Counted from the whole stretch's first letter, positions 11,554-58,976 are shown. The stretch: 63,947 nucleotides of DNA, filler included, from Globobulimina sp. (GCA_003354225.1; 5 parts of 5 records of this genome joined end to end with filler, not necessarily neighbours in it); one strand, 5' to 3'. Program-made: numbers and translations. Notes: generated from the sequence alone by a model not told the origin.

Positions 11554-11663
11554 GTATGACCGTAATTCATTGTTTTTAATGTAGTTTATCATTATTATAG
11601 ATTCTGACTATCAGAGTAATATTGACCAAATTTTAAAAAATTTAATAAACAAGGAACAATGTT

Positions 11664-11999: not shown

Positions 12000-12623
12000 A
12001 TTATTCGTATTAATTAACAATAATTATACTAAGAGAACGTGTTTCCTTATTTATATAAATAGTTTATTTTTTAAAGCTAATGTTTCAAGATCATAGAGAT
12101 ACCATTAAGCTCTAGTTCTAAACTTCCAGATAATTAGCTGCCCATAGCATTTCTTTTGCTTGCTAAAAGCAAGACTATATTTTAGCATTGATTCTTGATG
12201 CTACCAGTTAAATACCTATTAGCATCGGCGGTATTATTCCGCATTATAGGCGTGAAGCGCAGCTACTGAAATAGCTACACTCCACTGAACACAACTGACT
12301 AAACTAAGAGAGTCAATTATGTCTAAGATAATTTTACATAAATACGCATTTAAAGTCTTTGCTGATTTGAATAATTTGTTGAATTAATTTACTTAATTTT
12401 AAACAGAGAGATTCAAAATGGCACAGATACATCTGCGTTCCTTGTTTGCTCATATTTCAGAGCAAGAATATCTATTGGATAACAATAAATCATCCATGAA
12501 AAGCCCATTGTCTTCTATTGAAGGCAATAAGGCTTGTTGTCGCTTAGATATCAAGGTATTGAAAAATTATCTCCATAATGCGGAATTTTACCTTTTTATA
12601 ATCATCATAAAAAGGAGTTCACC

Positions 12624-13397: not shown

Positions 13398-13581
13398 TTC
13401 TAAACATTGTTAAGCAAGAGTTGCTGATGGTTAATAGATGATAGGGTGTCGGTAATAACTAATGAAGCTAAGTAAAACTAGATGAAGCCATTGCTTTGAT
13501 TATGCTCAATAGTTAAATAATTATTGAATAGGTTAGAATATTTGTATAAATTTCATGCTTTGAATTAAATGTTAAGGGTTT

Positions 13582-13719
13582 ATGTTTTATAGAATAGGGA
13601 TATTCATCTTCCTGTTGATATCGGTAATAACTAATATTGCATTAGCAGAAGAATATTCAAAGTACTCAGCGAACATCGATTACACGCTTAAAGCAGGAAA
13701 TAGACGAGATATATCAAGG
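13582..13719 (+). CDS. Secreted/outer-membrane protein, N-terminal fragment (cut by contig end)
   Basis: Signal peptide ending ALA-EE. Confidence 0.5.
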
Positions 13720-13819
13720 NNNNNNNNNNNNNNNNNNNNNNNNNNNNNNNNNNNNNNNNNNNNTTAATTAATTAANNNNNNNNNNNNNNNNNNNNNNNNN
13801 NNNNNNNNNNNNNNNNNNN
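13720..13819. other. Artificial contig linker
   Basis: N-run + TTAATTAATTAA + N-run, 100 nt. Confidence 0.99.
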
Positions 13820-26724: not shown

Positions 26725-26824
26725 NNNNNNNNNNNNNNNNNNNNNNNNNNNNNNNNNNNNNNNNNNNNTTAATTAATTAANNNNNNNNNNNNNNNNNNNN
26801 NNNNNNNNNNNNNNNNNNNNNNNN
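26725..26824. other. Artificial contig linker
   Basis: N-run + TTAATTAATTAA + N-run. Confidence 0.99.
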
Positions 26825-29800: not shown

Positions 29801-30663
29801 AATTTGAAATGCAGAGATTTTAGTTCTGAGGTCGCATTTTCTCGATTTTCTTGCATTAATCGTCGACGTCTTCGTGTTTTTATGTCAATGCTTCGTATTC
29901 CCATTGTAACATAATATAAATATTTGTCATATTTGAATGGTTTAATTTTAATAACAAGTCTTCGAATATCAATCTCTAAAATGGCAGCCAAATCCGACGA
30001 TAAACCACTACCAAAATTTAATAAGTTTACAGGTTTCGAATGTTGATCAAATGTAATATTAAATGCATATTCAATCGACACATTTGAAATTGGTTTATAT
30101 TCAGCTGGCAACATTTTGGTTGAATCAAATATAATTTCTGGTGATGGAAGTTTATAATTTGGTATTTTTATATTTTGTAAATATAAAATAATACCAATTA
30201 CAGAGAAAATAATGAATAATAATAAACTCATAGTGATACACATTCTGTTTTTTTTATTTTGATGACCTCCATCGATACTTATTATATTTCCATGTAAATC
30301 CGTTTGAGTCTGATTTGTATCATTCTTATTTCCGATCTTTGAATAATCAAATCCACCAAACGCATTTACCATATTTTTAAAAGCATTAAATACGACATCT
30401 GTTAATGTGGCATTGTTTTGAATGATGAAGGGGTCAATGGCATATTGTTGAGGCCATGAATCTGATGTCAATGAAGATTGACTGTTTTGTTGTATTTCAT
30501 ATTCATATGACGGAAATGAAGAGGAATCTGTTGATTTTTCATTGCCTGAAACAGATTTTGACGATAATGACACAGTATGTGCATTCACTGATTCTTCATT
30601 TATCAAACTTGTGGTTTCTTGCATTAAATCATCATCAATCAATAATTCATTCTCAGTTGCCAT
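26825..30663 (-). CDS. Large single-pass membrane protein of unknown function with Cys-rich C-terminal repeats (3' end cut by contig end)
   Basis: ORFs 29494-30663 and 26825-29406 are in one frame with one TGA between them; TM MCITMSLLLFIIFSVIGIILYL; RRRRRL furin-like site; duplicated Cys blocks. Confidence 0.7.
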
Positions 30664-30825
30664 AATTTGTGATAGTCCGACAACTTTCTAGTGCCGTTCA
30701 CTGAAAACACAAAAAAACTAAATAAAAAAAAACAATAATTTGGTATATAACAAAATAACAATAATTTTAATCATGCAAATCACAAAATACATATAAAAAG
30801 AGTAATAATACAACACGAAATCAAC

Positions 30826-36754: not shown

Positions 36755-37900
36755 TCATTTTGTTTGGTTTCTGTTCTGTTGTTGATCGATGTTGTTTTGA
36801 CTGATGATATTACTCTTTATCTCAATCCTCTCTTTAATCCATTCAACAGTATCAATAATACAATCAGGTTCTTCTTGATATAATGCATGTCCTCTCCCTT
36901 CATATATTTTGATTGTTTTATCAGTTTGGTGACATCCACAGTTTTCATAAAAATCTTTACTAAAATTACAGTCAGTCACTTTGTCCTCGTTTCCATGACC
37001 AATAAACAGTGGAACATTTAGTTTAACTTTGTCCCTTCCAAAACACTCCGTAACATTGAACAAATTCCATCCTGTAATCAACGACAATCGTTGTTGATAC
37101 AACAATGGATTCTCTTCAATCAGTGCTCTTAGTTCCAAATCACTTGTTAGACCCTCCGGTCCTGCTCCATTTGGTAATAATTTTGCTTTTGGGCAACATG
37201 GCAAACAGCAACATCTCAAACATGATATCGCACATTGCGGTGGTTTTGCTTCCTCTGCAATTCCAATCATCGGACAAACAGCAACTAGTCCTTTCCATTT
37301 ATTATTTGCCGATTTCAATGCAATTTTTATAGCAATAGCTCCTCCCATTGATGCTCCACTGTATTTTTTTTTAAGTTAAATTAATGTGATTTATAATTGT
37401 TTTTTTTTTGCATATATATACCTTATGAAATAATTGTTTGTTTTATGGATTGTATCAGCATAGATTTCGTGTGATTTTATGTATTTATTTATGACGTAAT
37501 CAAAAGCCCACATTCCTTCATCAACAATGTCAACATCAAAATCCTGGACATGTACAAAATCTCCATCTGATCGACCATGTCCTTTCCAATCGCACATAAA
37601 TACAACAAATCCCATTTCTGCATATTTGCAGCCAACATCATGAGTCAGCCATTCTATATTGTCCGCAAACCCGATACAATAACAAATCATTGCTTTGGCA
37701 TCTCGCGGGTTTTTCGGCTCAAATAATTTGCCAAAAAGTGATGTACCGTCTGGCTTTTTAATATATTCAGTGGTTATTTTGACTGTCGATGATTCTTTTG
37801 GAAGGAATTGATTTTCATTCAAGATTCTTCTACGTCCGGGTCCCGTATCCGTTTCTCGTGGACAATTGCATGTTTTACAGCAAGTTACGAGAGAACCCAT
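36755..37900 (-). CDS. Monoacylglycerol lipase-like alpha/beta hydrolase; intron 37421-37359
   Basis: DWKGHGRSDG; splicing gives nucleophile elbow GASMGG; HGNEDKVT, YEGRGH; MG..CC N-terminus. Confidence 0.88.
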
Positions 37901-39609: not shown

Positions 39610-39709
39610 NNNNNNNNNNNNNNNNNNNNNNNNNNNNNNNNNNNNNNNNNNNNTTAATTAATTAANNNNNNNNNNNNNNNNNNNNNNNNNNNNNNNNNNN
39701 NNNNNNNNN
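39610..39709. other. Artificial contig linker
   Basis: N-run + TTAATTAATTAA + N-run. Confidence 0.99.
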
Positions 39710-39716
39710 TGTATGT

Positions 39717-40523
39717 GTGTTGTTGTTGTTGTTTATTTGGTTGCATTTTCTTTTTCTATGCATTTTGTGTCAGAAAAACAACATAAATACTATGCAGAAG
39801 TCCGATTTCAGGCTCTTAGATATTGACAGTTTCTTGACTATTGCTGAGTTTTTTGGCGAAATGTCAACTGTCTCAGCAAAGTGTTTCCTAATATCGATAT
39901 CATCGGCCATCACCATCGTACGATCACAGCTTCCCCTGAATTCAACAAACATTATCGATTACAATACATCCACATCCACAGAAACTGATGCTGGACAAAC
40001 TAATAACATATTGAATGATATTAAACAATGTTTAGAATTTGGACATGAAATATTTAAAGAACGGCACAATGATACATGTTTTATAACCATTATAGTGGCA
40101 CTTGTAGTGGTTGTATTGATAATCGTCTGTTGTTGTATTTGTTTTTTTCAACATTGTCGAAACAGAGGAAAATCAAAAGAACGAAAAAAGAAACGGGATG
40201 CAAGAAAAGCAAATGCTGCAAATAAACGAAGAGAAAAGAAATATACAAAAACAAACAGCATTAACAGTGGTATTGTTCAATTGGAAGCACTTCAAAACCC
40301 AGATATTGTTTGTATATTAACTATATTTATACATATTTCATGTTTGCTATCCTTGCACGATCGATATTTGTTTCTGATAATATGTAAATTAATTAAATTG
40401 CAGGTGACGCCTGATGTAAATTATAGAGCAGAAATAGGATCCGATGAGGAAGAAGTTGGAAATGTCCAAAATGATTCTGAAGATTCAAGTTTTGTTGAAC
40501 CAGAATGCATGCCTGAAGTTTAA
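39717..40523 (+). CDS. Single-pass membrane protein, hypothetical (probable in-frame intron 40308-40403; start uncertain)
   Basis: TM FITIIVALVVVVLIIVCCCIC followed by basic tract; GT...CAG segment. Confidence 0.55.
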   Translation: MLLLLFIWLHFLFLCILCQKNNINTMQKSDFRLLDIDSFLTIAEFFGEMSTVSAKCFLISISSAITIVRSQLPLNSTNIIDYNTSTSTETDAGQTNNILNDIKQCLEFGHEIFKERHNDTCFITIIVALVVVVLIIVCCCICFFQHCRNRGKSKERKKKRDARKANAANKRREKKYTKTNSINSGIVQLEALQNPDIVCILTIFIHISCLLSLHDRYLFLIICKLIKLQVTPDVNYRAEIGSDEEEVGNVQNDSEDSSFVEPECMPEV

Positions 40524-40742
40524 ATATGGTGTAAAATGTAAATGAAGTTGTTCATTTGTGTATTTAAACATTGTGCTAAATGTACGTTTATGATCAAAGA
40601 TTTTGCATTATTCTACTAGTTCAAACAAAGGAAAACCTAGCATCAACATTGATAATCTGTGAGCCTGGAGTCAGACTTAGAACCTGACTGAATTTTGACC
40701 CACTACTACTATTGATTACTTGCTTTATTTAGTTAGTTTATT

Positions 40743-41498
40743 ATGGGTTGTTGTGCATCGCAAAGAGGTCGTGTGTATAAGTCATTGCTACAAAACAAGA
40801 ATAAAGAAACACGAGGCAATGAGGATAATGCAGCGATGTTGATCTCATATATACTACGTCAAGATGGAGATATTTATGATATGCATATACCACACTGTAT
40901 AAATTATTTATGTTTGCAATATTTTTATGAAAACACTAATGTGACATTTTATGATTATGATGGTTGCAATTCGCGCAATGTAGCTATTGGAAAGAATGGC
41001 AAACAAATAAGAGTAACATCAAACACCATCTTTATATTTAGCAATGCAGGATATGATTCAGGATATCATTGGTGGAGCGTCAAGTTATTGAATGTATACA
41101 ACTGCCAAGCTTTGGGTATCTGTGAACATAACGATTCAAGCTATAGGTACGGATATAATATATTTGATTGTGAGTTAAATAAACAATTAGGTGATAGATA
41201 TATTTATGCTGGAGATACCAACCATGGATGGATGGGTTCAACAGAAATGAGACCGTATATATTATCTGCTTCTGATAATAAATTAAAATATAATAAAAAA
41301 TTAAAATTAAAAAATAATCGATGGGAAAGTGGTGATATTATTACAGTAGAATTAAACTGCAATCATGATCCGTGGACCATTACATTTTTAAAAAATAGTC
41401 ACTATTTAGCTGATAAAATCAATATTGTTAATAAAACAATGTATTATCCTGTTTTCCAGGTTTATCAACGTGGAACTTTTCAAATTGTTGATGATTGA
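40743..41498 (+). CDS. Dually acylated SPRY/B30.2-like protein
   Basis: MGCC N-terminus; GYHWWSVK, GDIITVELN, ITFLKN, YYPVF. Confidence 0.65.
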   Translation: MGCCASQRGRVYKSLLQNKNKETRGNEDNAAMLISYILRQDGDIYDMHIPHCINYLCLQYFYENTNVTFYDYDGCNSRNVAIGKNGKQIRVTSNTIFIFSNAGYDSGYHWWSVKLLNVYNCQALGICEHNDSSYRYGYNIFDCELNKQLGDRYIYAGDTNHGWMGSTEMRPYILSASDNKLKYNKKLKLKNNRWESGDIITVELNCNHDPWTITFLKNSHYLADKINIVNKTMYYPVFQVYQRGTFQIVDD

Positions 41499-41742
41499 TA
41501 ATCACGAATTGCAAATTGTTGTTTTCTGCAGTTTTAATTTCCGCTGAGTGATTGAAATGTTTCTGTAGAAGTCCTAAAAATATTCAGTGTCATGGCATTT
41601 CACACATATTCTATTTGTTTTTTTATCGGAAAGCCCTATTCAATAATCTTAATTGTTGTTCTTCTGCCTCTAAATCAAGTGCTTAATATTTGTTTTTGTT
41701 TTTTTTTGGTTGGATTTAACAGAAACAAAAGTTTCCCCCAAC

Positions 41743-42261
41743 ATGGCAGAACAAAAGAAGGCGGAATCAAATCCGGATTGTCCAGTTATGCTTTATTACA
41801 TATTATACATTGTTTGTTGTATCATGACCGCCAGGACAAATTTTTAGCTATTTATCAATGGAAAATGCCGCATTGCTCTTCCAGTCAAAGAAGGAGCGGG
41901 TTCTTTACCATTACATATTAAAATGGGATGGGACTGGGAGTCAGATCTTGATCTTATGTATCACTTAACATTTGAAGGGCATTTATATATGGCACACAAG
42001 CCTATTTTCGCGATAGCTGTCGGATACTTATATTTGCAAAATGGCCTTCACCATGATGGTGTTTCTCATATAACAGAGGCTGTTAAAGTGAGTACGTATA
42101 AATCAAGTGATGGCAAATTAACATTTAAATTGGAACCCACCGCGGATTGGCACGCCTCATGTTTAAATATAACATTATTGGAAGGAGTCAACCATTGGCA
42201 CCAAACAGCTATGAAAACAATTAAAATGTGGGATTTTGGTCACAGCAAAAATGATTTGTAA
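41743..42261 (+). CDS. Hypothetical protein; intron 41785-41847
   Basis: MAEQKKAESNPDCP spliced in phase 0 (63-nt GT-AG) to LFINGKC...MGWDWE. Confidence 0.55.
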
Positions 42262-42326
42262 TTTTACACACAGTATATATATATTGTAATAAATGTATTT
42301 GTTCCTAAATAGTAGTGAGAGCACAT

Positions 42327-45300
42327 TCAGCCGGGGTCATAATCCGGCTCCATGCTCACCGATTGCTTAAACATCCCGGTGAGGGTATTAATTTGGTTGA
42401 ACGAAACCCCATAGGGGAAACGAAACAATTTGTATTTTGCATATTGGACAGAATTGAAATGGATTACTATTTGATTAGAATTGAGAGGGTGCGCCCTGCC
42501 AACGTCAGCTAAGGAGTCTGCAACTGCGTTGAAGGGTTGTTGTTTTGGGGTGGTGTGGGATTTGACTTTCCACAGGATTGCATTAATGGATTTGATGTAA
42601 GATTGAGTTTGAATGAAAAGATCTGAATTAATCATTTTGGTAATGTTTCTGGGTGTGGTGATTAGGGGCATGTAATTACAGAGCGAGTCTGTGAAAATCA
42701 GAACGCGTCTATGTTGGGTACTGATTTTAAGATGCTTTATTAGGAAGTTGGACTTGAGGATCGCATATAGTTCCCCAAAGTGATTAGATTGTGAGCCTAT
42801 CGGCTGAGTGTAGCAATGGATGTTATTATGGTCTTTAATAAATATCCCTATTCCAGTTAGATTGGTGTGGGGGTCATGAGAGGAGTCAGTGGCAACTATT
42901 AGATCGGTGCTGCGTATTTTGTATTTGTAGTTGTGCCACTCTGTGATGTTATCATTCCTGATGTGAAATATTATGGAATTGTTGGGGATAATGTTGTATT
43001 TCTTTCTTATTCCTGGGATTGTGGTGACAGAGTGGTTTATATTGTACACGTGATAGAGCCAGCGATGGGTCTGGGAAATGAGATTACGAAGCAAGGTATT
43101 TTTATTGGTGTTTATATTAATGGTATTGTGGTGGTATATAAATTGGTTGGTTTGTACATCATAGTAGTTTGCACCACATATAACTCTCCAGAATTGGGAT
43201 TTGTTTATGTTTACGTTTGTGCAGAGCTCAATGAGTCTTTGCATGAAAATTTGATTATGTATTTTGTCAATGGCTGCTCCATTTTTGGCGAAGGTAAAGT
43301 TGGCGTAGCTCCAGTATTCGTGTCGTAGAGTGTCGAGGGCCGGGCAAGTGACAATTAAATGTGTCTCAATTGGTTTGGCTGTTTGGTTGCCACATAGGTG
43401 GCAGAAGTTGGCTGTTTGGTTAAAGTTATAAAAAAGGGCTCTGTAATATGTTATCATTTGGTCATTGACATATTCTGCCAACTCGTTATTTTCATATATA
43501 TTCATCGGTCTGTAGTCACTGGTGATGTGATTCAGGGTTCTGAGAGGGTGATGGCGGTTTAATTTATTCACAATGTGTGTATGTTGATTGGTGACAATAA
43601 TTGGTCGTATTTGGAATGGATGGTCAACTGTGTCGAATGGGTCGATTGTGATGGGACCATTCGGAGTATGGTGTAATTGTAGAGGCAGCCATTTATTTTT
43701 GAGATTGGCATATTGTTTGTAGAGTTTATAATGATGGATATGGGGTAATTTGGTCCAGTGATGCATGTGTGAGATGTTGCCACCTCTCAAGAGTTTGTAA
43801 TAAAATACTAATTTTAGGGAAACCCAACGTTCATAAGGCGTTGGAATGCCAGCCCAAAGATAAAGCTGTTCTGGGACAAATTGTTTTATATTGGTTTGTC
43901 TTTTGATTGCTTGTAACTGCTTTTCTGTGGCTTCTTTTAGATTGATATCGTCACAATCTAGTACTTGCGCGAATATTTCGGTATATACTAAATAAAATGT
44001 TTTAAGGATTCTTATCTTGTCATCGAGCGAAATAAACTGGTGGTTAAAGTCAAGGTTGGCCAAAATGCGGGCTTTTTCATCAAGTTTTTTTAGGAACCTT
44101 CGGTTGGTGTATTGGGTCGACACCAGGTTGGTGTTGTCGTAGCTGCACAACATTGCCCCTAGATAACGAATGAATGTTGTGCAGTTTAGTCGTTCTCCAT
44201 ATAGGCTGAGTTTCAAGTGCATTACAGACGGTGCATATGTACGGTCATAACGTATATTTTCCCACATTATGGGAAATGGTTTATTTGTCAAAGAGTCATA
44301 AAATTTGGAATGCGCCAGAAATTGAGACAGAAAGCTCGATGGGATTTCGTTTTTATTATACGTTTGTATTTGATTATTTATGTTGATGCCGATAATGTTG
44401 TTATTGATAGGTTTTTGGATCAAGAGCATTGGGGCCGGAATGGTCATGTTTGTGTTCATTATTTCGTTGTATTCACATTGAATTAAGTTTCGATCATCAA
44501 TACTATACTCATTAATGTTATTCATATTTATGGAATTGTCATTGTATATTATTGAGCTGCATTTTTTATGATTAAATCGATAATTCCAACGTATACTGTG
44601 TCTCTCACACACATTTATTAGTCTTCGCAAGTCAGATATTTTGTTAGCTGCTAAAATGATGTCGTCCACGTAAAAGACGCAGGCAATTTTTTCATTCGTG
44701 TCAGGTGAATGTGCTCCTTTATTTGTGTTTTGTAGTTCGAAGATCAAGTCATTCAGGAAAGCGGCATAAAGGACCGGGGATAATACAGAGCCTTGCAAGA
44801 CTCCATTATGTAGTAAGAATTTGTTGGTTATGAACGGTATATCTCGTATTGCCGAGTGCGAGTTATTGTATATAGCTTTTAGTATTTTGCAAAGATTCAG
44901 AGGAATATTGAAGTCATTATGTAGCTTAAAGAGGAGGCCTTTGCGCCATACAGAGTCAAACGCCTTGCGGATGTCAAGTAAGGAGCAGTATAATGGGACA
45001 TTACGCATTTTTGCAGTTTCGGCAATGGCATTCAGCGCACCTATTTGTTCTGGAACACCACGTTTAGCTCTATTGCCGCCTTGTAGTATATGTAGGTTTT
45101 TGCGGAATTTATGGGAGATGTTCATTTCCCACAAAATCAATCTCTCGTAAGCTTTGAAGATGATTGGTAGGAGAGTTATGGGTCGATATTGATTTGGCGT
45201 GTTGCCATTGGGAGTTTTTAAGATTGGGATAATGGAACCGAGACGAAAGGCATATGGAATATGGAAGGTGTTGTTCCACGCATTAAATAGGATGGACAGT

Positions 45301-48300
45301 AGTTCGTTTATTTGAGAAGGGCTGGTTTTTAGGTGCACGGATTTGATACCATCGTAACCGGGGGCACTATTTTGGTTGGCATAGCCAAGCGCCATTTCAA
45401 CGGAGCTGTATTTGTTTGGTTCATCGTTAAGTGTGATTTCCATTGACTGTTTTTCATCATTTTCTTGTGTAATTGTCCTTTCTGGCAGGTATCCGGGAGT
45501 TTGTTGTTGTATATCACTTATAACAACGTCGTCGTCAGAATCATGATTGGAAGTACTTTGTGTTTCAAGTTGGTGCAAATCATTTATTAGTGGCTGTGTT
45601 GCCGGGACAAAGTGGGGGTCATAGTGGGGAACAAATGGATTTATAGTATCATTATGATGGTAAATTTCGTCTGGTGGCGTATGGATTGGTTCCAGAGGGG
45701 GAGGCACAGTATTTTGTGGAGCATCGCTGTCGTTGTCAGGGATGTTTGGAATGAATTTTATATGGTTTGGAATCTGTGTATCTAAGCTGTCATTAAAGTC
45801 ATTTATATCACGGATTTTATTGTTAGTGGTAGGGTCTGGCACAGGGCCGTTTATTTTACCAAAGAACTGGGATAACGCCACATTTTTGTCCATAATGCGA
45901 TTGTTATAATGTAAGTATGGTTCGTCTAAGATAAATGTGGTATTATTATTGTGGCGTTTGAAAGTTTTCAGTTTCTGGGAGTGATCCAAATTATCAAACT
46001 GCAGCGTGTTTCGGGTAAGTAGGTTCTGTCTATTTTGAACAAACTCATTTTCAGCATCGATTATTAATTGTTTGGCTTCTGCAGTGTTTGTGTTATCTGT
46101 GTTCATTAGGATACGTTGGCGAATATTAATTGAGATCTGTTTTTGTGTGATATTGGACCAACTGTCCATTGCATTGAAGTCACTGACACCAAATGCTTTG
46201 ATGGAGGCAAGGTGTAGAATGTACATTGCTGTTATGGAGGTGATATGGGAGAGGTATTTTAGGTGAGTTTCGTTGGTGAAACGATCTATATTCGCCGAGA
46301 ATTTCTGGAGGTGTTTTATTTTACTTTCAAGTATTTTATGGTGTATAGCTGTTAGATGGCCATTGGGTTTGTGGTGACGAAGAATGAAATGTTTGTCAAT
46401 GATTGTTGTTGTGCATTTGGTGTCATTTAAGGAGAAAATTACTGGGCGGTGATCCATGAATATCGGGTGTGTATCTACCTTCATTGTCTTTATCGAATTG
46501 AGGTTTTCTGTAATCACATAATCAATAATTGAGCCTCCATTGTTATTGATTCCTTTTGCTAGACAGGTAAGGAAATTTGGTGCAAATTGAGGGTTGGCAA
46601 TTTTTAGGTTGGTGGTATCTAACAAATTTTTCATGTATTTGTAATGAGGATTGGTGTTGTGATCCATTGTCAGTGTACCCATTCTAGCATTAAAGTCGCC
46701 GATGACGTACATATTGGTGCATTTTGGCTTATATTTATTGATGTCATTTATCAGGTTTTGGTAGAACGCTGTACTGCGCGCAATTTTGTCTGGTTTATAA
46801 GTGCGCGCATAATTTATTGCAACGTAAATAGGTTTGGTTTGGTCCTGACAGGATATTGATATCCACACTGTGTTATGCCCTCTGGTTTTATTAATAAGAT
46901 TAATTTTGTTTTTTAGTGTGGATTTATGATATATCAAAATGCCACCTACATTCTTGGGGTTGCGTGTGGTGTTTGGTGACTTATGAATGGTCAGTCGATA
47001 GCCTGGCAGATTCCAATTGGGTCGGCCAACACATCTGGTGTCTATTAGACAGATTATATCTAATTTATGGTGGATTATTAATTGTTGCATATATGGGTGC
47101 AGTTGATTTATTTTTGTTTTTGCGCTGCCGTTGATGTTCAAAAATCCGATTTTTATGTTTTTTATTTGGATTTTGGTGGCAGTGATTGGCTCAATATCTG
47201 GGGCATATATCTGCATGAATGGATATTTTAAAATGATTTGCGGGATATCTGCAACAGTGTGTTGTTTATTATTTACATGCTGTTGTATGACTTTATTGAC
47301 TAAATTATTTTTATATTCGCGCAGGTTATAGTGTCTTGTTCGTAGTTTGTTTACTGCATATTTGTACATTTGGTTGAGGGATATTATTGCATTGTTCTTG
47401 CTGTTGTTGATCCAGTTGTTTCTGTGCAGGCTATGCAATCGTATGTTTATATGGGAGTTTGTGGATTCCCAATGATTTTTTATGTCCTTTGTCTTTATAT
47501 TGGTGGGAATGAACCATTTTATGTGGTATTTATTATATTTGACAGACTGTTGTAAGATCGGAGTGTTAACAACGTACTCGTTTTTGATTATAAAATTGTA
47601 TAAACGGAGTATATTACTGGGACTTTTGTTAAAGGCATGCAACTGTTCATATCCTGTTTGTTCTACCGTTTCTTTTAAATATGGTATCTTTTTAAAACGG
47701 AGTTTAATGTTATGAGGGAAAGCGTTTTTTATGTAGAATTTAATTGGATGGTAGCGATGTTGTGGCATTCTCAAAGTGATCCACCGCAGAGATTTGTCCA
47801 TAATTATCTTAATATGTCTGTAGAACTTTCTTAATCTGTATTGATGTTTTTCAATGAATTTAAAGAGTAAATGGGTGTCCGTGTGGAGTTTGGTGCTTAT
47901 CATATAGCCACTATTGTAGCGTTCTGCAAGTGGGTGTTTAAAGTGATTGAAATAATTATAAATTGAATAACTAGTTTTTTTTGTGGTGAAATACGTGTTT
48001 GATTGTTTGATTTGTGTTTGGTGTAAAAGTGGGTCAACGCGGTGACTCATTTTTACACGGTTGATAATTATGTCATTAATTTTCAGAGAGCGACGACAGA
48101 TGATAAAATTATTAAAATTAATTGAAACGGGCACAATATCAATGGTTGTAAATGAAGAGAAAGTTGCATTTACAGCTTTGTAAATACGGGTGCCGTTATT
48201 CACACAGATTAAGGTTGAAAAAGAACAAAAAAGGGAAAAAGTAAAAATGTTGGAAAAACAAATGAAATGGAATAATAAACGTATAATAGACTGTATGATC

Positions 48301-48428
48301 GGAAGCTGACTAAACAAAAGAAATAAATATATTAAATAGGAAAGTGATTGAATTGGTTGTAAAATATTGTGGTGGATGTTGGTGCTATGAAGATAGCTGA
48401 TATTTATGGCAAGGAACACTGGGGCGTA
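42327..48428 (-). CDS. ORF2 polyprotein: N-terminal extension, APE endonuclease, RT, CCHC knuckle, RNase H (first ATG 48050)
   Basis: APE: FLNING, GDFNAR, IDY, DHRPV; RT: APGYDG, YRPITLL, LDIRKAFDSV, GVLQGSVLSP, YVDD, YLG; CHLC...H...C; RNase H: ATDSS, GELYAI, FTDS, KVKSH, NAVADSLA. Confidence 0.93.
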   Translation of the reverse strand, partial: YAPVFLAINISYLHSTNIHHNILQPIQSLSYLIYLFLLFSQLPIIQSIIRLLFHFICFSNIFTFSLFCSFSTLICVNNGTRIYKAVNATFSSFTTIDIVPVSINFNNFIICRRSLKINDIIINRVKMSHRVDPLLHQTQIKQSNTYFTTKKTSYSIYNYFNHFKHPLAERYNSGYMISTKLHTDTHLLFKFIEKHQYRLRKFYRHIKIIMDKSLRWITLRMPQHRYHPIKFYIKNAFPHNIKLRFKKIPYLKETVEQTGYEQLHAFNKSPSNILRLYNFIIKNEYVVNTPILQQSVKYNKYHIKWFIPTNIKTKDIKNHWESTNSHINIRLHSLHRNNWINNSKNNAIISLNQMYKYAVNKLRTRHYNLREYKNNLVNKVIQQHVNNKQHTVADIPQIILKYPFMQIYAPDIEPITATKIQIKNIKIGFLNINGSAKTKINQLHPYMQQLIIHHKLDIICLIDTRCVGRPNWNLPGYRLTIHKSPNTTRNPKNVGGILIYHKSTLKNKINLINKTRGHNTVWISISCQDQTKPIYVAINYARTYKPDKIARSTAFYQNLINDINKYKPKCTNMYVIGDFNARMGTLTMDHNTNPHYKYMKNLLDTTNLKIANPQFAPNFLTCLAKGINNNGGSIIDYVITENLNSIKTMKVDTHPIFMDHRPVIFSLNDTKCTTTIIDKHFILRHHKPNGHLTAIHHKILESKIKHLQKFSANIDRFTNETHLKYLSHITSITAMYILHLASIKAFGVSDFNAMDSWSNITQKQISINIRQRILMNTDNTNTAEAKQLIIDAENEFVQNRQNLLTRNTLQFDNLDHSQKLKTFKRHNNNTTFILDEPYLHYNNRIMDKNVALSQFFGKINGPVPDPTTNNKIRDINDFNDSLDTQIPNHIKFIPNIPDNDSDAPQNTVPPPLEPIHTPPDEIYHHNDTINPFVPHYDPHFVPATQPLINDLHQLETQSTSNHDSDDDVVISDIQQQTPGYLPERTITQENDEKQSMEITLNDEPNKYSSVEMALGYANQNSAPGYDGIKSVHLKTSPSQINELLSILFNAWNNTFHIPYAFRLGSIIPILKTPNGNTPNQYRPITLLPIIFKAYERLILWEMNISHKFRKNLHILQGGNRAKRGVPEQIGALNAIAETAKMRNVPLYCSLLDIRKAFDSVWRKGLLFKLHNDFNIPLNLCKILKAIYNNSHSAIRDIPFITNKFLLHNGVLQGSVLSPVLYAAFLNDLIFELQNTNKGAHSPDTNEKIACVFYVDDIILAANKISDLRRLINVCERHSIRWNYRFNHKKCSSIIYNDNSINMNNINEYSIDDRNLIQCEYNEIMNTNMTIPAPMLLIQKPINNNIIGININNQIQTYNKNEIPSSFLSQFLAHSKFYDSLTNKPFPIMWENIRYDRTYAPSVMHLKLSLYGERLNCTTFIRYLGAMLCSYDNTNLVSTQYTNRRFLKKLDEKARILANLDFNHQFISLDDKIRILKTFYLVYTEIFAQVLDCDDINLKEATEKQLQAIKRQTNIKQFVPEQLYLWAGIPTPYERWVSLKLVFYYKLLRGGNISHMHHWTKLPHIHHYKLYKQYANLKNKWLPLQLHHTPNGPITIDPFDTVDHPFQIRPIIVTNQHTHIVNKLNRHHPLRTLNHITSDYRPMNIYENNELAEYVNDQMITYYRALFYNFNQTANFCHLCGNQTAKPIETHLIVTCPALDTLRHEYWSYANFTFAKNGAAIDKIHNQIFMQRLIELCTNVNINKSQFWRVICGANYYDVQTNQFIYHHNTININTNKNTLLRNLISQTHRWLYHVYNINHSVTTIPGIRKKYNIIPNNSIIFHIRNDNITEWHNYKYKIRSTDLIVATDSSHDPHTNLTGIGIFIKDHNNIHCYTQPIGSQSNHFGELYAILKSNFLIKHLKISTQHRRVLIFTDSLCNYMPLITTPRNITKMINSDLFIQTQSYIKSINAILWKVKSHTTPKQQPFNAVADSLADVGRAHPLNSNQIVIHFNSVQYAKYKLFRFPYGVSFNQINTLTGMFKQSVSMEPDYDPG

Positions 48429-49895
48429 CTAGTTAGGGTCATTCTGATTGGATTCACTGTCTTTGTCGACGTTTGCGTCCATATTAGTGTCATCGTCAGA
48501 GTTGGCATAGTTGTTGGTGTTATCGTTGGCGTCAAAGTCGGCATTGATATCGACATTGACATTGGTGTTATTGCTGTTGTTTGTGTCTGTGTGGACACTG
48601 TACTCTTTTATCAATTTGAAATCTGAGCAAATGTCGATGCCGTGTTCCTGTTTCAACAACAATAATTTTAAGCGGTTCTCATTTAATATTAATTTGGTGA
48701 ACTCCTTGTTGACAGTCAGCGCTTTGTGGAAGAATAAGTGTGCAATGTCGTTGTCTTTAAGCAGTTGTTTGATGTCGTTATTGAATGTTAATCCTAACTG
48801 GCCCATTGTAGATAAATCGTCCCATACAATCTTCGCATTCTTGATTTTGATTCCATTAATTTTTGCAACGGCAAAGGAGTGATAAAATAAAATCAATGTT
48901 TGCTCATTCGGAGCGTTTCCTAAACCATACTGTCCCGTATAGCCGTCTTCTAATTGCGGTAAATTGATGCTACAGCCTTGACATTTTGATTTTAAATGAC
49001 CGCATCGGGGGATTATAGCAGCTCTGCGTATGTTTGACAAAATATGTGCAACGGTCTTTGCCTCCACTTGTTCTTGGGTCAATTTGTATTTTTTCGCCAA
49101 TTTGGCCTCTTCCAACTTACTTTTGAAGTATTCGCATTTGTTTCTGTCTTTGCAGAAAAGGGAGGGACAATAGTCACATCGGAGATTTTTATGCAAATTC
49201 ATTACTGTTTTGGCGACGTAGTCTTCTTTGTAGGTCTCCACGACGGTGATCACTTTGCCATTAATTATTGCGTTGTTTGATGCTAATATTATGTTTTGAT
49301 AATATTTGGTGACATCATTGAGGTCTGCAATGTCGACGCCACATAATAGGTTTCGCGCCATATTCTGGGCTGTAAATTTCCAGGAATGATGATTTGAATG
49401 CAATTGGTGTGGATGAGCAAAATTTTGTATATGGAAATCGGATTTGGACGGACACATATGATCTAACACATATTTTATCTCATGTTTATACAGAAACGGC
49501 GGCGGTTTATGTAGAGATAATATGTATTTATTTGTGATGGATGCTTTGGTGGAACAATACCATGAACGGGTCACTGTTTGGCTGGGAATTTGGACGTTTA
49601 ATTCTAAGCATTTGGGATCTGTTACGTGATAACCTAAGCGGTCCCAGAGATATTGGAGATTGATGGTCGAGCCTGCATAGCGGTTAATGGTGTCAATATT
49701 GTCTAATACTGTCATCGTAATGCATATTGCTAATTTGTTTCTGCACCAGAAATAGAATCCGGTCTTTTTGGTGTTATACGAAAACACACTGCTGCCATTA
49801 CTGGAGGCAATGTATGACGACTCCCCAATCGTTGCAATGTCATTGGCAATGAGTATGGATACTGGCTGTTTGTTATACGTGGCGTTATGAAACAA
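48429..49895 (-). CDS. ORF1 (gag-like) of the non-LTR element
   Basis: 488-codon ORF upstream of ORF2, Cys/His clusters CDYCPSLFC and CGHLKSKC, N/D-rich tail; no ATG at the 5' end. Confidence 0.7.
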   Translation of the reverse strand: MFHNATYNKQPVSILIANDIATIGESSYIASSNGSSVFSYNTKKTGFYFWCRNKLAICITMTVLDNIDTINRYAGSTINLQYLWDRLGYHVTDPKCLELNVQIPSQTVTRSWYCSTKASITNKYILSLHKPPPFLYKHEIKYVLDHMCPSKSDFHIQNFAHPHQLHSNHHSWKFTAQNMARNLLCGVDIADLNDVTKYYQNIILASNNAIINGKVITVVETYKEDYVAKTVMNLHKNLRCDYCPSLFCKDRNKCEYFKSKLEEAKLAKKYKLTQEQVEAKTVAHILSNIRRAAIIPRCGHLKSKCQGCSINLPQLEDGYTGQYGLGNAPNEQTLILFYHSFAVAKINGIKIKNAKIVWDDLSTMGQLGLTFNNDIKQLLKDNDIAHLFFHKALTVNKEFTKLILNENRLKLLLLKQEHGIDICSDFKLIKEYSVHTDTNNSNNTNVNVDINADFDANDNTNNYANSDDDTNMDANVDKDSESNQNDPN

Positions 49896-49931
49896 AAAAA
49901 CTTGGTAAAATTGGTTTTTGAGTTGGAAAAG

Positions 49932-52087
49932 ATGAGCAATGCGCGACCTCGCTCACCACCGCAACTTATGGTGAAACGGCAATTATTATTTTGTATAGGA
50001 AAATTATTAAATGTAATCAGTAGAAGGCAAAGAGACTTACGAAATAAATGTATTGATGTTCAAAAACAAATAAAAGCATTAAAAATAGATCCTCCAAATG
50101 GAGACAAATATTGGTCCATATTCCAAATGAGCTGTCAATCCCAGGTACCACCCATTGTTGAAGTGTCCTTAGACTCCATACAGAAATTAATGGCGCAATC
50201 TATCCTTACCGGACAAACGTATGCTGTCTGCACCATTTGTTCCACATCATACCATACATCACATAAATAAATGCAAATCAGTCGCGATAGGAATGGAAAA
50301 GCATTAATTGACACTATGGTGAAAACAATATGTAATTGTTGTGTAATCGAATCAGAAAAAGTACAGTTACAAATAGTAAAAGCCATACTGACCTTAGCGA
50401 CCTCGCCGACCTCTCACGTTCACGGCCAATCCCTATTAATGTGTCTCCGCGCATGTTACAATATATTTTTATCCACCAAAAACATCGATGTCCAAACCTC
50501 TGCCAAAGCCGTGCTGACCCAAATTGTTTGCGCCGTGTTTCAAAAAATGGAAAAAACGCAACAATTATCCATCAAAAAACAAACCGCCAAACACCAACGG
50601 TCTGAAACGCATTTAATGTGTCGATCGATGGTCGTTGGCCTATCCAATGAGATTGCCGTCCGACACAAATATGACACTATAATTCCGTATCAATCCACAC
50701 CGCCAATCTCCATCCAACCGGCACCAGAACAAAAGGAGCAAAAACAGCCACCAATACACACCCACAAAAGCATCAAACGTGGCAAATTCGGTTGGTGCGT
50801 ATTATGTGCCTCACCGGCAAGTCATTACTGTATACAGGTAATCCATATACGAAATACCTGACAATATCCATCCATATCCTTGCACTGTAAAACAAACAAA
50901 AAAAAGACCCGCGATCCCGTCTGCTCGTTAGATTGCAAAATGTCAAACTTAGAGCACAGCATTACTTTCCTGCGCGCACACAATGGCAATGCAAGCAGCG
51001 CCTATACCAACGCTACCATATCCCGTTTAGAATTAGCGTACAAATCCACCCTCTTAACCAACGACGGGCACATTTTATTTCGTGCCTTATGTCGCCAGGC
51101 CCACAAAACCTTGCCCACAGACAACATAATCAACATCAAAAAAGGCAGCGACAGTGGCAGCAGCATCGCCTGGTTAGATTTCAAGATCCCCCGTCTATTC
51201 GACCCGCATTCTGCCATGAAACCGTTAGCTTTGAAGTCCAAAGTCTTATCATTGGAGTTATTGCGCTTAGTCTTCAGTAACACGGGCCATACTTTTAAGT
51301 CTTCGCATCGATTCATAGACGCAGTGCGGGAGTGTTTCGTGCCCGTCGTGACTGAGAACGCGGTGAGTACCGTCGAGAACATCTTCCAATTAGCCGTCAA
51401 TATGTTTGCTTTGTTGGTGGAAGGCTACAGGAAATACCTCAAGAATGAGATTGGTGTGTTGTTAGACAACGTGTTTTTGCAAATTGCCGAGTCGCCGCAT
51501 AGCAATTTCAAACAGAAAAAAATGGCGCTGACGGTGTTTAATAAGATTTGCAGAGATCCGCAGGTTTTGATTGGTATTTTTTTAAACTATGACTGCGGCC
51601 ATCAGCATCAAAATAGATTTCAACGCATTATCGACTTATTGGAGAAAATATGTTCCGTCAAACAGGGGAATGAAGCGCATCAATCATGGTCGCCGCAGTT
51701 GGTGGAAAATGTGGAATTGCGGCGGTTAGCGATTGAGATATTGGTCAATATCATAAGATACGCCAATGAATGGGTGGTCAAAGCGAATAAAACCAACGCA
51801 CAGGTTTTTACCCTTAATATTTAATTTTTGATTGTACGTCGGGACAAACACAAATATGCTCAGGTCTATGAAGAGAAATACCACAACAAAAATATGCCGA
51901 TGCTCAATTCTGTGGCGTCAGACAGCGACCACACAGAGGATGAGCATGAAGACGACATTAAGGATATTTGCGAAGCGGATCGATTGAAATCGGAATCCGC
52001 GTCGCAACATTTACAACGCTACGAAGAGAAGAAAAAGATACAACAAAATATCTTAAACGCAGTGTTGAAATTTAACTTAAAGCCGAA
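49932..52087 (+). CDS. BIG/GBF-type Sec7 ARF-GEF, N-terminal DCB and HUS regions; multi-exon, cut by contig end
   Basis: SLDSIQKL, VQLQIVKAIL, CYNIFL, KSKVLSLELL, LKNEIGV, FLNYDC, KFNLKP; introns ~50219-50281, ~50838-50906 and from ~51804. Confidence 0.9.
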
Positions 52088-52187
52088 NNNNNNNNNNNNN
52101 NNNNNNNNNNNNNNNNNNNNNNNNNNNNNNNTTAATTAATTAANNNNNNNNNNNNNNNNNNNNNNNNNNNNNNNNNNNNNNNNNNNN
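52088..52187. other. Artificial contig linker
   Basis: N-run + TTAATTAATTAA + N-run. Confidence 0.99.
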
Positions 52188-55899: not shown

Positions 55900-56067
55900 A
55901 AAACTAGGTTATGAATAAAATGGTTTTTTTGTTTTAGCAGAGACTAAAATGAGACCAGGAGATTGCGAGAAGGAAAACGTGAATACGCAAATAAAATCAA
56001 GGACCCCAACAACGAATGAATGGGTGAGTCAAAATCGAATCAAAGAATACATTAAAACTTTGATGAG

Positions 56068-56622
56068 TCAATGTCCTTTTTGCTCCTTTCCCTTTTTCGG
56101 TCCATTATCATTCCACCAAGGATGGGTATAAACACATCCATCTCTCTTACACTCCTCTTTTTTCCTATCCACATTACAACGTCCATCGTTGCCATTGCTG
56201 AAACCTCCACGGCCTCTGCCTCTTCCTCTGCCTCTACCTCTGGCGCCTCCTCTACCTCTGGAGTTGGGAAAATAACCACCTCCATGGTTTCCACCACCAA
56301 AATTCCCGTTCTGAGGGGCGGCGTTTCCGTCGCCTCTGTTCCGTCTGGCTTTGGCATTGAAGGCGGAGTTATCTACCTTTCTCTGGATAAACTCCGGCTT
56401 CATTAAGTCACCAAAGCGGACCATCTCGGCATATTCCTGGAACGTGGTGGCGTATCTGTCCAAGCACGCGGCGTCGCAGATAGCCTGCGCCCTACCTTCG
56501 TAAAACCTGGGGGCCGAAAATAATAACAACTTCGAGATCGTTGCCATCGCGACCAAAGTATCAACGACGTGGTCGCCCCACCAACTGTTGAGCTTATCCA
56601 TCATATCGTTCAACGTCTCCAT
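56068..56622 (-). CDS. Gag C-terminal part: RGG tract and C-x8-C-x4-C-x3-H zinc finger
   Basis: RGRGGARGRGRGRGRGG then CNVDRKKEECKRDGCVYTH. Confidence 0.75.
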   Translation of the reverse strand: METLNDMMDKLNSWWGDHVVDTLVAMATISKLLLFSAPRFYEGRAQAICDAACLDRYATTFQEYAEMVRFGDLMKPEFIQRKVDNSAFNAKARRNRGDGNAAPQNGNFGGGNHGGGYFPNSRGRGGARGRGRGRGRGRGGFSNGNDGRCNVDRKKEECKRDGCVYTHPWWNDNGPKKGKEQKGH

Positions 56623-57930
56623 TAAGTCGGCAGGCCAACCTGCTTCGTCAAGTTCTTGGCGGACTTCCTGTTCGCCGTGACCGCGGCCCTCTTGACCACC
56701 TCCGTCCTCCGTAATAAAACGCCTAAAAACATCATCACCATCGAAGAATCCATGTCCGGCCGTACGAGCTTCTTGCCGGAGTCCGAGAAATTCTTGTTCC
56801 TCGCGGCTGAGAAATTCAAGAGGACCACCAAAGCCTTCTTCGTGACTTCGTCGGTGTTTTTATTTAAAATATCATGCAGGTCACCACCAGTAAGGTCCGC
56901 TGGAGCTTGCTTGATCAAAGCCTTCCTGGCGGCAGCCTTTCTCTTTTTCATCGAATAACCTTCATCATCACTCGAAGAAGAGGAGGCCTCGGACCAACGT
57001 CTCTTTCTCGACCCTGTCTTCCTCCTCTTGGTCCGCGACTGGCGGTCTTGCCTGTCCTGGGCAGCGTCGAGCAACTGCTGCTGCATAATCTGGAGGGCTA
57101 GACCCTGGTCCTTGCGCAACTGGCTCAGTCCTGCTGTGGCGTCATTGCCTTTTTTCAATAATAAAGCAAAGGCCTTCGCCATTTCATCTGACATGCCTAA
57201 CGAGGCCGCCATCGCATTAGCTTCTTCTGGCAAAATCTCTACATCCGTGTCCGGATCGCTTTCAACTGCCGGGGAAACTGCAATGCGACTGTCGTCCGAG
57301 TCACCATCCTCCACTTTGCTCTTCGCCGCCTCTTTTAAGTCCGCTTCGCGTTTCTTGCGCCTCGCTTCTTTCTCTGCGGCATTCCTCTTCGTATTCTCCA
57401 TCCATTCTACGGCCTTGGCGTGGTCTTTCTTAGCCTGCGCTTTGGCCTTCGCCTTGGCCTTCTCCTCGGCCTTCTTCTTCTTAACCTCTCTCTTCTCTCT
57501 CGCAGCCGCCACCTTTGCTGCCACTTCTTCTGCAGACAAAGCACCGTCGGCCACGACATCATCGCTTTTCTCATCTCCGTGTTTCTTCGGGGTCGCCGGA
57601 GTATCACTCTCCGCCCCCGGATGCACGAGGTCTAACTCGTCATCTCGCTCTTTGCCATCTTCCTTAGCTGGACAGCCTGGCACTTTGGCAGTTAACGCAT
57701 CCGCTAACTCCAACTCCTAAGTAGCACACAAGACACCGTCAGTACACTGTACTCGACCATGGTATCCCTGCGCGACTCGGACCCACGTCAAAGCGAAAAA
57801 CGAGGGTTACCGAGTCAGCAAACCGTGAAAGGATAAACAGAAAAATAAATAAAGCAGACCTTTTTCTTGTCCTTATTCTTCTTAGTCACCCTCGTTGTTG
57901 CCTTCTTATTCTTATTCTTCAAGTTGAGCG
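56622..57930 (-). CDS. Gag N-terminal part; Lys-rich exon down to 57860, predicted intron 57859-57717
   Basis: GC3-rich basic/acidic ORF opening directly after CTACTTAG; upstream K-rich frame ends AAG|GT in phase 0. Confidence 0.6.
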
Positions 57931-58976
57931 GGTCTTCCATCACATGCAGGAAAGCAAACATTGCAAGAAGATAAAGTGAGAATTGATATGGAATTAAAAC
58001 TAACTGAACACGAAAGAAATAGTTTAAAAAGTGATCAAGAAGTAATGTCTAAATCGTATTCAATGTTAGAAGATAATTATACATTTTCAGTGAAACAAAG
58101 TACTGATTTAAAATCAATGAATGATGACTTACAAAGCTCACTCGATACAATCTCAAACGATTTATCATTAGAAAGAGCACAAAGCAACGGTCAAAACGAA
58201 AGAATTCAGAAATTAACAAAATTTATACAAGAGTATAAAAGGACAAATAGCGAGTTAAGGAATAAAAATGAACAGCAAAACAAACAAATTACAGATTTAC
58301 AATGTCAACATCGCCAAAATCAAACTCAAGTTGAGTCTTACTGCAAATTAACATAGTTTTTGCATGTTTAATATTAAATATAATTAAAATATAAATTAAT
58401 TCAGATTGAAAGTTTAAAATGTGAGTTAGAGCAAAGAACTGATGAAATAAACAAATTACATCAAGAACTGGGAGTTGTGGGCAGTCGTTTCAGTGCAATC
58501 GGCAATACGTCTTATCGCGTACGAGCTGGTCGTGAATCTGTCAGCTATGATACCAATATATTTAGATTTAAAAGAAGAGCATCGATCGCCTCATTGATGG
58601 CAGAAACGTCACATAATTAGATAACGATTTATCTGCAAATGCCATAATGGATTCTGATGAGGAACCGCGTAAAGATGAAGTAATTGGTTTGCGTGAGTTT
58701 GTGAATGCACTTAATTTTCCAAATGTGTCTGCAGTTACAAATATTGATGAAGATTTTGAAACATTTGGGCCAAAATTGAAGGATATTGGTCATGTAAATT
58801 TAGATGGATTAAAAAGAAAACATTTTAGTTTAATGTCAGAGTTGAAAAAAGAATTGGAAGATATTTCAAATACTTTTAAAACAGATAGTTATGATTGTAA
58901 ACAAACATTAGTCAAGAAACGGAAAACTAACACGAATGTGCTTGGTTTCAATTGGTTTGGATTTTGTTTGTGGTGA
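57931..58976 (+). pseudogene. Coiled-coil protein, 5'-disrupted paralog of the 59097 gene (intron ~58330-58403)
   Basis: EDKVRIDMELKL...LKSDQEVMSKSY aligns with QDKYRVSTQLKL...LKSEQDIISKTY; shared C-terminus KHF.L..E..K.L.DISN...LVKKRK...FG.CL. Confidence 0.7.

Follow-up and report, generated by a model that had tools for sequence, protein, structure and literature searches.

The window analysed here, a 63,947-nucleotide (nt) stretch of Globobulimina sp. DNA (GCA_003354225.1), carries on its minus strand a long interspersed nuclear element (LINE) whose two open reading frames (ORFs) share one frame and are separated by a single UAG and a 126-codon, uridine-rich spacer without stops. This spacer, or linker, is probably translated by ribosomes, most simply through leaky termination at the UAG, a reading to which we give a probability of roughly 0.4. 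To judge from its sequence the element is a recently inserted, apparently intact two-ORF retrotransposon of the kind that has no long terminal repeats (non-LTR), and it belongs to a sparsely sampled family.

According to our hypothesis, selection would keep the 378-nt U-rich spacer free of stops in the ORF2 frame, and ribosomes would translate it. Most ribosomes would halt at a genuine UAG and release the ORF1 protein, and a minor fraction would read through into a 2462-residue ORF1-spacer-ORF2 fusion. As in Gag-Pol systems, the leaky UAG would in this way keep ORF2 low relative to ORF1. Both the entry by readthrough and a functional ORF1-ORF2 fusion are what we infer from the arrangement described below.

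An open spacer between ORF1 and ORF2

On the minus strand CCT AAC TAG closes ORF1, and TAC GCC CCA GTG follows in the same frame. The original prediction of a shared frame, with 126 codons that hold neither stop nor ATG between the TAG and the Met at 48050, was confirmed, and the linker peptide quoted with it is the correct translation. Two stop-to-stop ORFs, 48429..49952 (507 codons) and 42327..48428 (2033 codons), adjoin in one frame. Over the whole LINE this frame holds one stop in 2541 codons, the other two holding 172 and 199; the 2541 codons include 79 ATG-free codons upstream of the first Met of ORF1 at 49715. Counted from that Met, the fusion would comprise 428 + 1 + 2033 = 2462 residues and not the more than 2500 first proposed.

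The openness of the linker is specific to its frame, with no stop in frame 0 and 8 and 9 stops in frames 1 and 2. From the composition of the linker (41% T, 27.5% A, 9% G) one expects 0.052 stops per codon and an open frame with a probability of 0.00125. Shuffling gave similar values, 0.1% of 20000 mononucleotide shuffles and 0.085% of 20000 shuffles of 63-nt blocks being open. Moreover, when a codon model was trained on ORF1 and the core of ORF2, frame 0 of the linker scored best, by 0.08-0.15 nats per codon, which is near the values of the known coding parts. Taken with the open extensions of the two closest relatives, described below, these results bear out the view that the linker is not a plain spacer.

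The linker is also extreme in composition. All of the nine most U-rich 120-nt windows of the 7.7-kb LINE fall inside it, and the U-rich island begins right past the UAG and ends just upstream of the AUG at 48050. At third codon positions we counted 58 T, as against 39 expected from the amino acids of the linker and the codon usage of the LINE (P ~1e-4). This excess indicates that the U-richness is a property of the RNA and not merely the reflection of a hydrophobic peptide.

Two copies of a 23-nt sequence, 83% identical and 401 nt apart, form a direct repeat, one of them lying in the linker (48341-48363) and the other, in a different frame, in the first conserved ORF2 motif (47940-47962); the AT-rich sequence may have produced this repeat by chance, or it may be an RNA motif present twice. 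A nested insertion was considered as the origin of the linker and rejected, as no flanking direct repeat was found.

Comparison with relatives

A word-index search returned a close ORF2 relative, P0001, with 50% identity over amino acids (aa) 793-2027. The exhaustive HMMER search, made with ORF1, the UAG rendered as Q and the first 660 ORF2-frame residues, matched 144 proteins, none of which spans from ORF1 to ORF2, and among 3518 candidates of 1354-4309 aa none matched the junction region. In an alignment-based search for related DNA loci 424 stretches matched, with no relatives among them. A degenerate pattern for reverse transcriptase (RT) motifs, validated on the window, recovered four contigs of one metagenome-assembled genome (MAG; loci L001-L004, Table 1). 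These contigs carry a different LINE, which we rejected as a comparison for the junction because it is too distant (27-29% identical over the RT); the presence of a LINE-type RT in contigs of a bacterial MAG record indicates that eukaryotic DNA was binned there.

The two closest relatives with sequence upstream of the first conserved ORF2 motif are P0006 and P0015, which are 48% and 46% identical to the window protein. BLASTP aligns them only from that motif on, and the linker peptide shows no conservation in this comparison. Open extensions in the ORF2 frame precede the motif in five relatives: P0006 (~160 residues), P0015 (~500), P0025 (~3170), P0033 (~120) and P0036 (~85). All-against-all BLASTP found no similarity among the five, and the extensions of P0006 and P0015 are rich in F, I and L although they cannot be aligned to the linker. 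Openness and composition, but not sequence, thus appear to be kept across the closest relatives, which suggests that ribosomes traverse the spacer in the ORF2 frame.

ORF1 has relatives in two of the 144 proteins, both of them short fragments: P0022 (aa 49-184) and P0017 (aa 216-389). P0017 finishes in an Asn-rich tail a few residues past the conserved part, as does the ORF1 of the window. The stop falls in an unconserved zone of 193 of the 2462 codons, which separates aa 389, where the conservation of ORF1 ends, from the first conserved ORF2 motif. This position, the tail of P0017 and the lack of any relative that joins the two ORFs together argue for an ancestral stop rather than a private mutation.

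The motif itself, N[FY][FYN]NH[FY] or in its longer form [ST][YF][GS][IL]xN[FY][FYN]NH[FY], is present in the window and in five of 29 fetched relatives (P0006, P0015, P0025, P0033 and P0036), about 20 residues upstream of Met176 of the ORF2 frame. Its conservation implies that the ORF2 protein begins upstream of 47972, and 48050 is the only AUG available for this in the window. With respect to Met176, the predicted starts of 17 relatives lie exactly there in 6 cases and 3-33 residues upstream in 8, and the other 3 have long extensions. The invariance of Met176 is probably structural and not a sign of initiation, because in the model this residue falls within the first strand of the folded domain and the residues just before it are conserved as well.

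The distant relative P0025 is predicted as a single ORF of 5035 residues, in which the long upstream part is followed by the ORF2 motif, an APE-type endonuclease, RT and RNase H. The upstream part contains repeat-like Cys/Leu-rich stretches and shows no similarity to the ORF1 of the window (best E = 0.025, at an unrelated position). P0025 may be a giant polyprotein, or it may result from the fusion of gene models or from run-through of non-coding DNA.

Hydrophobicity of the linker

The linker contains the most hydrophobic windows of the whole frame, with a Kyte-Doolittle maximum of 1.81 and 11 windows at or above 1.6. The upstream extensions of P0006 and P0015 reach maxima of 2.64 and 2.59. 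On the Hessa scale the best 19-residue sum of the linker is +1.7 kcal/mol, which is marginal. AlphaFold models helices at linker residues 23-40 and 43-90, with a predicted local distance difference test score (pLDDT) of 57-80 and zero alignment depth there.

Of the earlier claim that the linker looks membrane-spanning, the hydrophobicity is upheld, but the membrane span is left a weak proposition by the third-position T excess. Such an excess of U at synonymous sites weakens the idea of a membrane anchor, and the hydrophobicity of the linker is at least partly, and probably largely, a by-product of U-rich RNA rather than a selected anchor. The stronger hydrophobic segments in the two closest relatives, on the other hand, lend that idea some support. 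It is also conceivable that the U-rich spacer has two roles, as an RNA shield after the ORF1 stop and as a membrane-inserting readthrough peptide, giving a membrane-anchored ORF1-ORF2 fusion particle. The peptide would then tether the ORF1 protein to an RT that bears a tandem RRM-like RNA-binding module. Full membrane-grade segments at the same position in both of the closest relatives speak for such a dual role, which we consider quite unlikely all the same.

Readthrough and its alternatives

Readthrough needs no extra assumption to explain why ORF2 shares the frame of ORF1, why an AUG is missing and why the spacer is open, and a linker without an in-frame AUG offers no ordinary start of its own. 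Several observations weigh against readthrough. With a folding tool that does not predict pseudoknots, no stable RNA structure was found 3' of the UAG: 141 nt gave z = -0.10 (83 of 200 shuffles were as good) and 61 nt gave z = -0.45, so that the fold check proposed with the original prediction came out no better than shuffles. The eight bases past the UAG (UAC GCC CC) are pyrimidine-rich and not purine-rich, and U at +4 is not known as a leaky context. A hydrophobic segment of ~50 residues would be awkward inside a nucleic-acid-binding fusion. The composition is back to the ORF norm just ahead of the AUG at 48050, and the conservation of the ORF2 protein begins 26 codons past it; together with the A at -3 and a local hairpin (Table 1), these features fit this AUG as a real and separate start. 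Furthermore, conservation of the stop, the frame and the openness was judged from predicted proteins of unknown completeness, in relatives that are ~50% identical, and the extensions of P0006 and P0015 contain 6 and 10 Met residues, respectively, so that these relatives may simply start ORF2 far upstream. Of the features expected of programmed readthrough, the element shows a downstream ORF in the same frame without a further stop, and no stimulatory structure or context was found.

Restart after the UAG, with ORF2 made as a separate protein, is in our estimate nearly as likely as readthrough. It could take place at a near-stop non-AUG codon, the first in-frame near-cognate being the GUG at 48419, in which case the spacer would be a hydrophobic N-terminal extension of ORF2, or it could take place at the AUG at 48050, in which case the open spacer would be what is left of such an extension. 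Experiments on other LINEs support termination-reinitiation, as described for SART1 and human L1 (PMC5972666), and in the account of PMC1965478 the L1 ORF2 AUG is replaceable by sense codons whereas Zorro3 requires its first ORF2 ATG. The features of the AUG at 48050 named above favor restart at that site, and the predicted proteins P0006, P0015, P0033 and P0036 begin with Met 85-510 residues upstream of the motif. Nevertheless, a restart at 48050 does not explain why 126 codons are open in this frame and not in the others (P ~0.001), and a restart near the stop would not need the frame of ORF1, which then becomes a 1-in-3 coincidence. The first AUG in any frame lies 260 nt downstream of the UAG, there being no overlapping or adjacent stop-start (UAAUG) here, and on its way to 48050 a scanning subunit would first meet two out-of-frame AUGs, at 48169 and 48076, which open ORFs of only 28 and 2 codons. 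The hairpin around the AUG at 48050 is not exceptional for the element either; about six distinct 50-nt windows elsewhere in the LINE are more stable, and we give it modest weight.

The other explanations do away with a leaky UAG in different ways. The family could have a single ORF, with the present copy killed by a private nonsense mutation, as the original prediction allowed. This would fit the single frame with one stop that runs from 49952 to 42330, and P0025 is predicted as one protein with its thousands of stop-free residues ahead of the motif; we find it disfavoured and improbable, given that none of the 144 relatives joins ORF1-like sequence to ORF2, that the upstream part of P0025 is unlike ORF1 and that P0017 ends at the equivalent place. 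A random hit would fall within the 193 unconserved codons with a chance that we estimate at ~8%, and a young copy with a perfect duplication, one nonsense change and zero frameshifts would in itself be improbable. That splicing removes the stop strikes us as very improbable. The G of the UAG starts GUACGC, which resembles host 5' splice sites, and removal of in-frame GU...AG candidates of 33, 45, 120 and 384 nt would link ORF1 with the spacer or directly with ORF2; nine candidates of 3n length span the stop without leaving a stop at the junction, and four host introns of 60-69 nt open with GTATGC, GTAATC, GTTTTT and GTATAT. However, GT...AG pairs are abundant by chance, the candidates all fall outside the host range in length, the short ones have a much higher G+C content than host introns, and from established LINE biology an element copied from spliced RNA would be expected to lose the intron. 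Equally little credence goes to a host that decodes UAG as an amino acid and so makes the LINE a single ORF. TGA does end most long ORFs of the eukaryote-type pieces of the window, and several ORFs adjoin in frame across single stops, but when TAG is decoded as sense, host ORFs lengthen by 68 codons at most and the LINE ORFs are the only ones to merge. In addition, no TAG interrupts the host ORFs of 387-556 codons in which Pfam domains (RCC1, RabGAP-TBC, pyridoxal phosphate (PLP) decarboxylase, Tel2) were recognised, and where checked the abutting ORFs are explained by GT..AG introns of 60-69 nt. Least credible of all is a plain non-coding spacer, open and in frame by accident: the scarcity of G does lower the frequencies of TAG and TGA, yet the openness has P ~0.001, with a further factor of 1/3 because the frame is shared, 17 stops fall in the other two frames, and the relatives are open too.

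Known systems and significance

In the literature that we searched, the only other LINEs found with an in-frame stop were those of the Paramecium paper by Guerin et al. (2017, PMC5405496), where the Group 3 consensus RT21873 is described with an 'in-frame stop' between ORF1 and ORF2 and read-through is proposed. RT21873 resembles the present element in having ORF1 and an APE-RT ORF2 in the same frame with an in-frame stop between them (PMC5405496). As listed in Table S3 of that paper, its ORF2 (1021-3720) differs in lying directly past the stop, with the APE (1132-1737) ~37 codons later, and that table gives no RNase H, whereas our LINE has one. Our LINE, unlike RT21873, also places a 126-codon U-rich spacer and an extra domain of ~300 residues before the APE. 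In Paramecium UGA is the only stop codon, whereas the host of the window appears to use the standard code. A LINE with an in-frame stop between its ORFs is thus already on record; what is new here is the long spacer, free of stops and extreme in composition, together with a family whose ORF2 has an additional double domain at its N-terminus. An amber codon may also separate in-frame ORFs in the ATLN-type LINEs of Arabidopsis.

Murine leukaemia virus Gag-Pol is similar in that an in-frame UAG lies between a nucleic-acid-binding ORF and an enzyme ORF, with the downstream frame open, and such an arrangement would give a low fusion:ORF1 ratio. In the description of PMC13517186 its readthrough signal consists of an 8-nt purine-rich spacer and then a pseudoknot. 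The corresponding bases of the window are pyrimidine-rich and are followed by no significant structure, and our element is not an LTR element. SART1 and L1 share with it a two-ORF LINE RNA, low-level ORF2 from the same transcript and local structure near the ORF2 start (here the hairpin 48058-48021). SART1 uses an overlapping UAAUG with a needed downstream structure and L1 has a 63-nt spacer, as reported in PMC5972666. The spacer of the window differs in its 378 nt, its open frame and its two out-of-frame AUGs. Rous sarcoma virus has a pyrimidine-rich RNA stability element just 3' of the gag stop. It resembles our spacer as a ~400-nt pyrimidine-rich stretch directly past the stop of the first ORF in a long polycistronic retroelement RNA, but the resemblance is purely compositional and such an element need not be open in frame.

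The translation of ORF2 from bicistronic LINE RNA has been settled for very few elements; reinitiation is established in L1 and SART1, and the case for readthrough is so far a proposal based on Paramecium consensus sequences. The LINE described here is a clean test case, as it is young and intact, with a single UAG and a long spacer that is statistically open, unconstrained in its peptide and extreme in its RNA composition. If readthrough or a stop-proximal restart is true, non-LTR elements outside ciliates would have a Gag-Pol-like expression strategy, and selection could act on the mere translatability of a spacer. The modelled tandem ferredoxin/RRM-like domain ahead of the endonuclease suggests, in addition, that part of an RNA-binding function usually belonging to ORF1 may sit in ORF2.

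Anatomy of the element

The original identification as a non-LTR element is supported by Pfam matches to Exo_endo_phos, RVT_1 and RNase_H and by the 12-bp repeat that bounds the LINE (Table 1). Direct repeats of 12 nt or more came up in 14 of 2000 shuffles and in none of 99 real-sequence control pairs. We take the repeat as the target-site duplication of a recent insertion beside or within the 5' end of a Sec7-like gene. Joining the sequence across the duplication, as a reconstruction of the empty site, produced no clean N-terminus of that gene, which neither supports nor contradicts the duplication. The perfect duplication and the otherwise intact ORFs argue for a young copy that should mirror its active parent. 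With blastn and tblastn no second copy of the LINE was found in the window, and self-BLAST matched the element only to itself, without terminal repeats.

The last 79 codons of the 5' leader (49716-49952) are open in the ORF1 frame and free of ATG, with P ~0.009 from composition; frames 1 and 2 have 1 and 5 stops there, which makes a weaker case than that of the linker. At the other end, no poly(A), A-run or tandem-repeat tail was found in the 27 nt between the ORF2 stop and the duplication. Tail-less LINEs that rely on a 3' stem-loop exist, and the predicted hairpin that spans the ORF2 stop could serve the RT of this LINE as such a recognition stem. The most stable local hairpins of the minus strand (-16.5 to -19.8 kcal/mol in 50-nt windows) are 42313-42362, 42488-42542, 44138-44187, 49783-49832 and 49918-49967, two of which lie within the 5' leader.

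In ORF2 the APE-type endonuclease is N-terminal to the RT in one ORF, and a Cys-Cys-His-Cys motif and RNase H follow C-terminal to the RT, the order seen in LINE clades with an RNase H (I, Tad1, Ingi, LOA and similar). The solved structures nearest to the RT are R2 reverse transcriptases (E ~1e-16); human L1 ORF2p was not matched among solved structures at E <= 0.001. The N-terminal domain of ORF2, of ~250 residues, is modelled by AlphaFold with a pLDDT of 84-98 from residue 174 on and is matched by dozens of relatives in HMMER, although it has no Pfam family and no usable hit in the ESM Atlas. Foldseek returned ferredoxin-fold designs and tandem ACT and tandem RRM proteins with E of 1e-4 to 1e-2 and low TM-scores. 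The likeness to RRM proteins in the model is a lead only, and the domain may be an RNA-binding module.

ORF1 has Cys/His clusters in the middle of the protein and an Asn/Asp-rich tail. No family could be assigned to it, with Pfam giving only a sub-threshold Cys-His hit. A sequence search against solved structures found nothing (best E = 0.071), the ESM Atlas search gave no usable hit, and the AlphaFold model was unusable (mean pLDDT 34).

Table 1. Coordinates of the LINE, of its signals and domains, and of other features of the window (SD, standard deviation; UTR, untranslated region)
Feature	Position	Strand	Details
Presumed target-site duplication, 3' side of LINE	42288..42299	.	AATAAATGTATT on + strand; 12-nt exact direct repeat
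Whole non-LTR retrotransposon	42300..50042	-	7743 bp, bounded by 12-bp duplication
Predicted hairpin across ORF2 stop, near LINE 3' end	42313..42362	-	-18.9 kcal/mol; top-three stability among 50-nt windows
ORF2 stop TGA	42327..42329	-	followed by 27 nt of 3' UTR
RNase H	42501..42905	-	PF00075, E = 4e-06, 27.5 bits (cut-off 25.8)
Cys-Cys-His-Cys motif, between RT and RNase H	43344..43403	-	C1676, C1679, H1690, C1695 invariant, window versus P0001
Reverse transcriptase	44553..45203	-	PF00078, E = 1.1e-27, residues 1076-1292
APE-type endonuclease	46509..47138	-	PF03372, E = 1e-08, residues 431-640
ORF2 N-terminal domain (modelled)	47349..47909	-	two consecutive beta-alpha-beta-beta-alpha-beta (ferredoxin/RRM-like) units
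Met176 of ORF2 frame	47901..47903	-	sole invariant column of 18-sequence alignment
First conserved ORF2 motif	47934..47972	-	SYSIYNYFNHFKH; BLASTP similarity begins here
Predicted hairpin with AUG 48050 in its 5' arm	48021..48058	-	-13 kcal/mol; z = -4.09; 0/200 shuffles as stable
First in-frame AUG past UAG	48048..48050	-	A at -3; only in-frame AUG upstream of first conserved ORF2 motif
Linker	48051..48428	-	126 codons, no in-frame stop or ATG; 41% U, 9% G
Peak of U-rich island	48213..48332	-	55% U, 74% pyrimidine; LINE mean 25.8% U (SD 5.3)
Single in-frame UAG	48429..48431	-	context AAC UAG UAC GCC CCA GUG
ORF1	48429..49715	-	428 codons + TAG; first Met at 49715
5' UTR	49716..50042	-	327 nt
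Presumed target-site duplication, 5' side of LINE	50043..50054	.	12-nt exact match to 42288-42299
Inferred host introns, Sec7-like gene	50219-50281, 50838-50906, 51804-51863	+	63, 69, 60 nt; interrupted Pfam domains, GT..AG ends
Inferred host intron, hydrolase gene, another piece	about 37380-37445	-	63 nt; interrupted Pfam domain, GT..AG ends
Filler joints	13720-13819, 26725-26824, 39610-39709, 52088-52187		N44 + TTAATTAATTAA + N44
MAG contigs with LINE-type RT	JBEVXV010000080.1, JBEVXV010000946.1, JBEVXV010000577.1, JBEVXV010000845.1		loci L001-L004

Window composition and host genes

The window consists of five unrelated pieces of 11.8-13.7 kb each, which differ in content and are joined by four N44-TTAATTAATTAA-N44 joints; arguments from neighbourhood are consequently invalid across the joints. 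The piece with the LINE, 39710-52087, is 12.4 kb long and has no relation to the bacterial plasmid genes at 1-13719; the neighbours of the LINE there are of eukaryote type: an SPRY protein and a Sec7/BIG-like gene with DCB and HUS domains. The idea that the LINE resides in a Legionellales bacterium, which came from the plasmid-type genes, is ruled out by the joints and by the presence of only eukaryote-type genes in its own piece. A megablast of the LINE against the plasmid collection gave no match.

The piece 1-13719 is bacterial and plasmid-like, with a type IV coupling protein, a TraA-type relaxase-helicase and ParA/ParB, and additionally helix-turn-helix regulators, a Schlafen/AlbA_2 protein and a LuxR-type regulator. 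Its relaxase shares 53% identity with the one of an Aquicella lusitana plasmid and ~48% with those of Legionella plasmids, and megablast of the piece against the plasmid collection found no near-identical DNA.

In the host genes, the DCB profile is broken by ~28 extra residues, and removal of the intron restores the GxSxG motif of the hydrolase. The in-frame stops of the Sec7-like and hydrolase genes thus lie inside GT...AG introns and are not signs of an unusual genetic code. All four introns are multiples of three and each holds an in-frame stop, so that the exons look like abutting ORFs. For one gene to have three of three introns in frame is unusual, and it carries an ascertainment bias since these introns were spotted by being in frame.

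Elsewhere in the window, a 1287-codon frame without Pfam match (26827-30687, minus strand) is interrupted by a single in-frame TGA at 29494-29496, around which no convincing intron was found. A G+C-rich island at 56000-58000 (50-52%, versus ~35% elsewhere) has no Pfam hits and contains long overlapping ORFs on both strands. In the eukaryote-type pieces (13820-63947) the prevalence of TGA at the ends of long ORFs occurs despite a G+C content of ~36%, and many of these ends are probably intron stops.

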